Below are positions 26,336 through 27,060 of a stretch of DNA of 64,000 nt, one piece after another (the stretch's first letter is position 1; each line of letters opens with the position of its first letter). The stretch lies in assembly GCF_057098645.1 (NCBI RefSeq), contig NZ_CM169472.1; one strand, 5' to 3'. The notes beneath the pieces are model-generated. The model saw only the letters and a program-made list of their open reading frames with translations, was not told the DNA's origin and searched no databases. The translations under genes were made by a program, and so were the position numbers.

Positions 26336-27060
26336 ACCCAGATAAGTATGCCTGCAATCAGAACGTTATCGATGTAATCTCATTATCTCATTAATAAGAT
26401 TTTTTGAATAGTAGTTCTACGCAATAGACTAAATATGAACTATTTATTGTGCTGCTTTTCTACAAGCCATTTTTAATGCGTGTTTTTATCTACATTGATG
26501 TGAAAAAATAAATATAAAAGCTATGAATTACAGGGCGTGGGGGATGTGTGTTACGTCTAATGTTTTAGTGATGTTTAGTAGTTTTGAGATATTTGACGTT
26601 ATTTCTTATGAGGTTGTTTTTATTATTTATCTTATTGATTTTGTATGCATTTTGTCGTTCAATGAAGTTATGGTGTAGAAAATAAAAATTTAATATTATT
26701 TCCGTTAATTTACAATAACACATTGGTTGTAAGATATTTTTTAGTCGTAAGTAAATCGTTATTGATGGGTTCTGCTAATAAATTAAAGATGTTCTCTTAA
26801 ATAGTTTTTTTGCTTTTTGTAAATATCAATTTGTTTATTTTTGATTCATTTGCTGGAGAGTATTTAAATAATTTTTATTTTTTTGCATAAACTTATTAAC
26901 AACTTTTTATTACCAATTAGAAATCAATGTAAACTAAAATGTTAGCGAAGCGATAACCTTGTGCTAAAAAATATTTAAGCATGATGATTAATTAAAGAAG
27001 AGTAAAAATAAATCACTGCTAATAAATTATACGAATTGTGTTTAAAGCTCCACGTTGTTT
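26336..27060. other. ~725 bp extremely AT-rich ORF-free tract upstream of the recombinase gene
   Basis: Composition visibly far below flanking genes; no ORF of 60 aa or more on either strand in the track. Confidence 0.8.

Follow-up and report, generated by a model that had tools for sequence, protein, structure and literature searches.

A probable H-NS/Ler-controlled regulatory region upstream of the ipbA (fimX) recombinase gene in PAI-X / O-island 14 of Escherichia coli

The AT-rich tract at 26336-27060 of the window, by which is meant the whole 64-kb stretch of DNA that was analysed, is reasonably likely to be a non-coding 5' regulatory region of the recombinase gene ipbA/fimX, controlled by H-NS and Ler, at the betA-proximal end of PAI-X / O-island 14. 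It is a genuine but ordinary feature of a known locus, to which a modular pattern of conservation and a putative leader terminator add new details of modest interest. The tract and the gene it precedes are as follows:

26336-27060, no strand: the AT-rich tract, intergenic, extending from ipbA to the betA-side end of the island.
25748-26335, minus strand: ipbA (= fimX = hbiF), a Fim-family tyrosine DNA invertase gene, identified by its RefSeq name and by NCBIfam.

An earlier note on this DNA, made from the sequence alone, had described the tract as lying far below the average composition, with runs of A and T, free of any ORF of 60 aa or more, and upstream of a recombinase gene, and in each of these respects the description was borne out. 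The 725 bp of the tract are 26.1% GC, compared with 49.7% for the whole window, which by our own arithmetic is about 12.7 binomial standard deviations under the window mean. The 725-bp frame of minimum GC in the 64 kb is 26353-27077 (25.7%), placing the tract close to that minimum, and the next independent low-GC region among 725-bp frames of the window has 33.4% GC. There are fifteen runs of A or T in the tract, each of 5-7 bases, and its longest ORFs encode 51 aa (26523-26678, plus strand) and 52 aa (26565-26723, minus strand). No ORF of at least 15 aa in the tract is intact across all allele families, although such a paucity of ORFs is expected at this composition, and hence represents no separate signal. 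The left edge requires correction, as the position of the native ATG of ipbA corresponds to about 26299-26300, and the intergenic region begins at about 26301-26312 rather than at 26336; the right end of the low-GC zone falls between 27050 and 27106. Elsewhere in the window, the second-lowest GC stretch (33339-34063, 33.4%) is downstream of betT, at a position occupied in Sakai by ECs_0362, a gene for an adhesin of the AidA-I family (O-island 15), and is probably another AT-rich regulatory region.

The window is of E. coli origin, O145:H28 being closest to it at 99.5% identity. The order on the minus strand is betI, betB, betA (27376-29046), the tract, ipbA, the hyxS switch and hyxR (24625-25419), such that betA, co-directional with ipbA, lies upstream of the tract, and the tract, as the note had proposed, precedes a recombinase gene, ipbA being confirmed on the minus strand. 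The product of ipbA matches the NCBIfam models of tyrosine-type (Fim-type) DNA invertases with E = 8e-74, and is named by RefSeq as 'tyrosine-type DNA invertase IpbA, also known as HbiF and FimX'. Relative to K-12, 21854-27269 is an insertion between ykgH and betA, with the tract at its betA end; it is the published PAI-X, which in EDL933 is O-island 14 (Z0390-Z0397). The absence of the tract from K-12 within this insertion upholds the description of the DNA as horizontally acquired. The tract is carried by 1890 of 5426 complete E. coli genomes (35%), in single copy and always colinear, and no second copy was present in any of the 5426. A protein-level scan of genome contigs identified a single locus outside E. 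coli, in Escherichia sp. MOD1-EC7003, and a scan of metagenomes identified ten loci, every one from the known allele families. Genomes with IS insertions in this region include H55 (NZ_OZ546984.1), H132 (NZ_CP100950.1) and H25 (NZ_AP022540.1); IS1 is within the tract in H55 and H132, and IS2 is near ipbA in one genome. Hence insertions around the tract are tolerated.

Ler is a paralogue of H-NS, and a link between Ler and ipbA can be drawn from published data. A decomposition of public EDL933 RNA-seq data put the 'hypothetical' gene Z0395 in the LEE modulon, and qRT-PCR showed that deletion of ler from EDL933 left the Z0395 transcript 'greatly reduced' (PMC9263587). In supplement file 3 of that paper Z0395 is listed as ipbA, and the qRT-PCR primers fall at 26008-26028 and 26087-26108 of the window, within ipbA. 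The same paper cites Ler ChIP-chip binding near Z0395 (Abe 2008), and predicts in silico a Ler motif from -212 to -201 relative to the Z0395 ORF. This predicted site corresponds to approximately 26558-26569 or 26501-12, according to the start used by the authors, and both positions are inside the tract. Given the paralogy of Ler and H-NS, these published results lend indirect support to control of the H-NS type.

From 49 samples of the expression table in the supplement of PMC9263587, we computed correlations of r = 0.88 between ipbA and Z0397, an 83-aa ORF in the right flank of the tract, r = -0.51 for Z0397 with betA, and r = 0.77 for betA with betB. Expression on the two sides of the tract thus varies in concert and does not follow the neighbouring bet operon, the co-expression concerning these two flanks and not the interior. 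For a compendium whose strandedness is not stated, such a pattern fits divergent transcription, a single long leader on the minus strand, or a shared silenced and de-silenced domain. In an older array study, Z0397 was two-fold higher in an rpoS mutant.

The tract resembles regions of the H-NS/Ler type in that its GC content is far below the host average over several hundred base pairs, and in that it is horizontally acquired. A high-affinity H-NS motif or curvature is a supportive feature of this class, not an obligatory one. The high-affinity H-NS consensus scored here was TCGATAAATT, and sites matching this consensus are not enriched in the tract, with one site at up to two mismatches against 2.8 expected. 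Similarly, the phasing of AA/TT at 10-11 bp gave its signal at an 11-bp period (z = 2.8), which is not significant once the scan over many periods is allowed for, since 30% of shuffles reach the observed maximum. The general reading offered in the earlier note, of a regulatory, H-NS-type target resembling the fimB upstream region, is supported in part, by the foreign DNA, the place in front of a Fim-family recombinase gene, the fim-like composition and layout, the conserved sub-blocks and the published Ler dependence, whereas the suggested nucleation motif, curved DNA and small RNA are not supported. We infer that approximately 0.8 kb of DNA at 24-32% GC would be coated by H-NS-family silencers, resulting in low expression of the recombinase, and that in LEE-positive strains Ler would lift this silencing. 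Most carriers of the island (B2/UPEC) are without Ler, and hence another counter-silencer would be needed there.

Conservation of sub-blocks across strains had been put forward as a check on the regulatory reading, and two conserved sub-blocks were found. The alignment comprised eleven alleles in four families, these being the O157/O145/1943 type, the B2 type (e.g. strain 536), STE15, and Escherichia sp. EC7003, and it divides the region into three parts:

26312-26500, minus strand: proximal conserved block, next to ipbA, with 3.7-7.4% divergence between families, EC7003 included.
26501-26936, no strand: hypervariable core, with substitution divergence of 20-28% within E. coli and 30-38% from EC7003.
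26937-27106, no strand: distal conserved block, with 2-3% divergence between the two main families and 10-11% from STE15.

The right flank (27107-27269) differs by 10-21% between families. As yardsticks for these values, dS is 0.02-0.08 for ipbA and 0.13-0.23 for betA. The core accumulates changes at a rate close to or above the local neutral one, yet in all families it keeps a GC content of 24-26% and a length of 433-445 bp, despite many substitutions and indels. The proximal and distal blocks, the distal especially, look constrained from this alignment, although their conservation could partly stem from recombination history instead of selection. Beyond the tract, betA is strongly diverged among E. 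coli lineages at the dS given above, and betB (29060-30532) has dS of 0.07-0.16, both well in excess of the values for ipbA and hyxR from those strains; this points to allelic lineages of long standing, or to recombination in the vicinity of bet.

One alternative is that the tract is mostly non-functional filler, in which decaying DNA between an IS481 remnant and ipbA would have become AT-rich through mutational bias, with only a short ipbA-adjacent promoter functional and the distal conservation a by-product of recombination. The rate of core evolution, at or above the local neutral rate, the decayed transposase that adjoins the tract, the IS1 insertions in H55 and H132, and the absence of motif or structure signals from the tract would all be accommodated by such decay. 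However, the 170-bp distal block is 2-3% diverged while its neighbours differ by 10-28% on both sides, which is hard to explain without constraint; the length and GC content of the core are kept through its many substitutions and indels; and both flanks are co-expressed, with ipbA being Ler-dependent (PMC9263587). We therefore regard this alternative as unlikely.

The regulatory reading assigns distinct contributions to the three parts. The proximal block presumably holds the 5' UTR and promoter-proximal region of ipbA, and it folds better than shuffles (z = -2.5). There is no covariation in this block, the RNAalifold covariation term being +0.41, with no compensatory pairs. Two candidate elements lie within it:

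26321-26353, minus strand: terminator-like hairpin with a U-rich tail, from a terminator scan.
26382-26390, minus strand: candidate extended -10, TGAGATAAT, from an ad hoc scoring-matrix scan with a conservation filter, invariant in all alleles.

The predicted hairpin (26353-26330) has a 10-bp stem, an AUCU loop and a predicted energy of -12.3 kcal/mol, and lies on the ipbA strand about 30 nt before the native ATG. Its tail is U-rich, with CUCUC followed by U6, this last run varying from U6 to U8 across alleles, and the whole has the stable GC-containing stem-loop and subsequent U-tract on the transcribed strand that typify a terminator. The stem pairs fully in six distinct alleles, with two one-sided compatible changes and none compensatory. 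An antiterminator or alternative fold upstream of the hairpin is not supported, because the predicted upstream helices are broken by substitutions in two allele groups. The candidates from the matrix scan, all of them predictions, score weakly, and a consensus scan found promoter-like sites in the tract not to be in excess, with two against 7.8 expected from shuffles. Within this proximal module, the leader hairpin and U-tract could terminate or attenuate transcription entering ipbA, and the hairpin probably limits transcription into the recombinase gene.

The 435-bp core would need only AT-richness and length in the same scheme, acting as a filament or spacer scaffold. For the distal module (26937-27106), a role in protein binding or as a promoter is probable. 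The distal block contains a 15-bp imperfect palindrome, TTAGCGAAGCGATAA, at 26942-26956. On its minus strand, 27031-27026 reads as a perfect TATAAT, preceded by a poor -35, and the 8-bp arms of an inverted repeat, TATACGAA/TTCGTATA, occupy 27028-27035 and 27099-27106. Its RNA folding is unremarkable on both strands, with z of about 0 relative to shuffles. Two further features adjoin it:

27107-27345, minus strand: decayed remnant of the 5' end of a ylbG-related IS481-family element, with 75-78% nucleotide identity to K-12 ylbG and its upstream sequence.
27106-27357, plus strand: ORF equivalent to EDL933 Z0397, 'hypothetical protein Z0397' by exact-sequence look-up.

The relationship of ylbG to the IS481 transposase model has E = 2e-25. 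The ATG of the remnant transposase is at 27279-27277 on the minus strand, and an 11-bp perfect IS-end inverted repeat occupies 27279-27289 and 27330-27340; STE15 retains 96 bp more, coding for a further part of the same transposase. Homology to K-12 restarts at 27270, inside the IS481 remnant, which marks the island boundary. Hence an IS-associated rearrangement is suggested to have shaped the island edge. The Z0397 ORF, which encodes 83 aa in EDL933, continues in frame to 27531 here through a change of TGA to TGC. It is antisense to the transposase remnant, has many amino-acid replacements between alleles and has no NCBIfam family match, and is probably not a real gene.

An improbable alternative is that promoters in the tract fire divergently, or that it gives rise to a separate non-coding transcript. 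This could be either a plus-strand RNA that starts in the distal block and crosses Z0397, lying antisense to betA at its 3' end, or a short RNA of the minus strand with its end at the hairpin before ipbA. In favour of this alternative are a Z0397 region that is unlike a real coding gene, is co-expressed with ipbA, and is anti-correlated with the adjacent betA, and a terminator-like hairpin just before ipbA. Yet the read strand is not stated, and a single long leader on the minus strand, or a co-silenced shared domain, would give the same correlation. Moreover, there was no match in Rfam to the tract at E up to 1, no covariation, and no unusual fold of the distal block, which behaves as shuffles do. 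Of the promoter and terminator expected of a small-RNA gene, the terminator-like hairpin is present and conserved, and the promoters are weak predictions. On the Rfam, covariation and folding results, the small RNA raised in the earlier note is not supported.

The regulatory reading can be extended, as a speculation to which we give little credence, into a three-part device. Two constrained operator or promoter modules about 435 bp apart would be separated by a spacer constrained in composition and length, possibly a scaffold for H-NS bridging or filaments, with a leader terminator capping recombinase output. The four deeply diverged spacer alleles might then set lineage-specific expression of ipbA/fimX, and hence the switching rates of hyxS and fimS, and the co-expressed transcript from the Z0397 side may interfere with betA.

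Two remaining alternatives can be set aside, the first being that the tract encodes a small protein, which is extremely improbable. The candidate annotated by databases is:

26544-26678, plus strand: 44-aa 'hypothetical protein' ECs_0356, from the RefSeq and Sakai annotation; a spurious ORF.

Although RefSeq and the Sakai record annotate this protein, and some records call its 51-aa form a 'putative membrane protein', only the O157/O145 allele group keeps the ECs_0356 frame open, frameshifts or stop codons breaking it elsewhere; together with the 52-aa minus-strand ORF, it was rejected as a candidate for being intact in three of ten alleles, all of one family. Neither product has an NCBIfam match, searches of the literature on ECs0355 and ECs0356 found nothing, and the hydrophobic composition of both ORFs is the product of a T-rich strand.

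The second, that a further invertible, phase-variable element like fimS, hyxS or ipuS is hidden in the tract under the control of IpbA, has a negligible probability and is already close to refuted. It has a basis in the usual adjacency of recombinase genes of the Fim family to their switches, and a repeat search picked out many pairs of inverted repeats there. However, the best of these, at 12-21 nt, are mostly imperfect stretches of low-complexity AT sequence; the allele families align colinearly, with no inverted piece by strand-aware blastn; the 1892 genomic places include no second, reversed place; and a genome-wide screen of UTI89 and CFT073 with over-expressed Fim recombinases identified only fimS, hyxS and ipuS (PMC6458436). 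The candidate was rejected because no specific inverted repeats flank a segment of 200-400 bp, and because neither alleles nor genomes exhibit orientation polymorphism. Instead, the cognate switch is on the other side of ipbA:

25462-25732, no strand: hyxS, the FimX-dependent invertible promoter element, between ipbA and hyxR and outside the tract.

The inverted repeats of hyxS read in the window are TTCAAAATGTCAG and CTGACATTTTGAA, the element having been published with 16-bp repeats (PMC6083910), and it has one orientation in every assembly or locus in which it was found. Its hyxR-proximal end (25446-25478) is a perfect 33-nt palindrome, AAACCTGACATTTTGATTCAAAATGTCAGGTTT, comprising two inverted copies of the repeat, one of which is direct relative to the ipbA-proximal repeat (25716-25735). 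Hence excision, as well as inversion, is possible in principle.

In this strain, an 11-bp deletion between 26298 and 26299 (ATTTTCTCGTC, plus strand) removes the native ATG of ipbA (MTRKYLTQDEV...), and among the eleven alleles it is common only to the window and O145:H28 RM12581. The forms of ipbA that remain are the 173-aa RefSeq product from an internal ATG (26269), or a 195-aa frame from a GTG (26335), which is an in-frame ORF with an unrelated N-terminus. Hence the regulatory region may be vestigial here, the start codon of the gene having been deleted; in O157:H7, ipbA is a frameshifted pseudogene. Within the same island, hyxB is cut down to a 360-aa autotransporter beta-barrel fragment (21927-23009) beside an IS3-family element (IS1203/IS629-like, 23199-24412), which directly adjoins hyxR, and no hyxA ORF was found between the IS and hyxR (window 21927-24625). 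The ipbA/hyx system of this strain is probably decaying.

In strains with an intact ipbA, control of switch frequency by the tract is plausible. IpbA/FimX flips hyxS and can flip the type 1 fimbrial switch, and the quantity made therefore bears on phase variation in E. coli, uropathogenic strains among them. If ipbA is tuned by the conserved modules and spacer alleles, then differences between lineages in fimbrial and hyxR switching would be traceable to this region; otherwise, it would be one more AT-rich, silencer-prone intergenic region of an accessory island.

The tract can be compared with three known systems. Firstly, it belongs to the same recombinase network as the hyxS, fimS and ipuS switches, with hyxS in the same island, 600 bp off on the other side of ipbA; unlike these switches, it is without the defining inverted repeats or orientation polymorphism. 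Secondly, it is comparable to the targets of H-NS silencing and Ler counter-silencing, such as the LEE promoters and the EHEC Ler regulon. Unlike them it has no curvature signal or excess of the scored H-NS consensus, but it is likewise foreign, with a GC content about 24 percentage points below that of the window, and ipbA (Z0395) is a Ler-dependent member of the LEE modulon (PMC9263587). Thirdly, the likeness to the fimB upstream region that the earlier note had drawn holds for composition and layout, and not for any sequence relationship to the fimB or fimE regions, as blastn with a word size of 7 and permissive scoring gave a best E of 0.024, which is the chance level. The tract also differs from these regions in sitting within an accessory island, beside an IS remnant and downstream of the co-directional betA. 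Nevertheless, IpbA shares 56% identity with FimB and 53% with FimE, and the nanC-fimB and fimB-fimE regions are likewise long, AT-rich and non-coding, preceding genes for Fim-family recombinases, with the fimB-fimE spacer having 27.3% GC over 477 bp and the nanC-fimB spacer 36% GC. The regulators of fimB include NanR, NagC and others, and the recombinase dosage set by such upstream regions governs switching rates.
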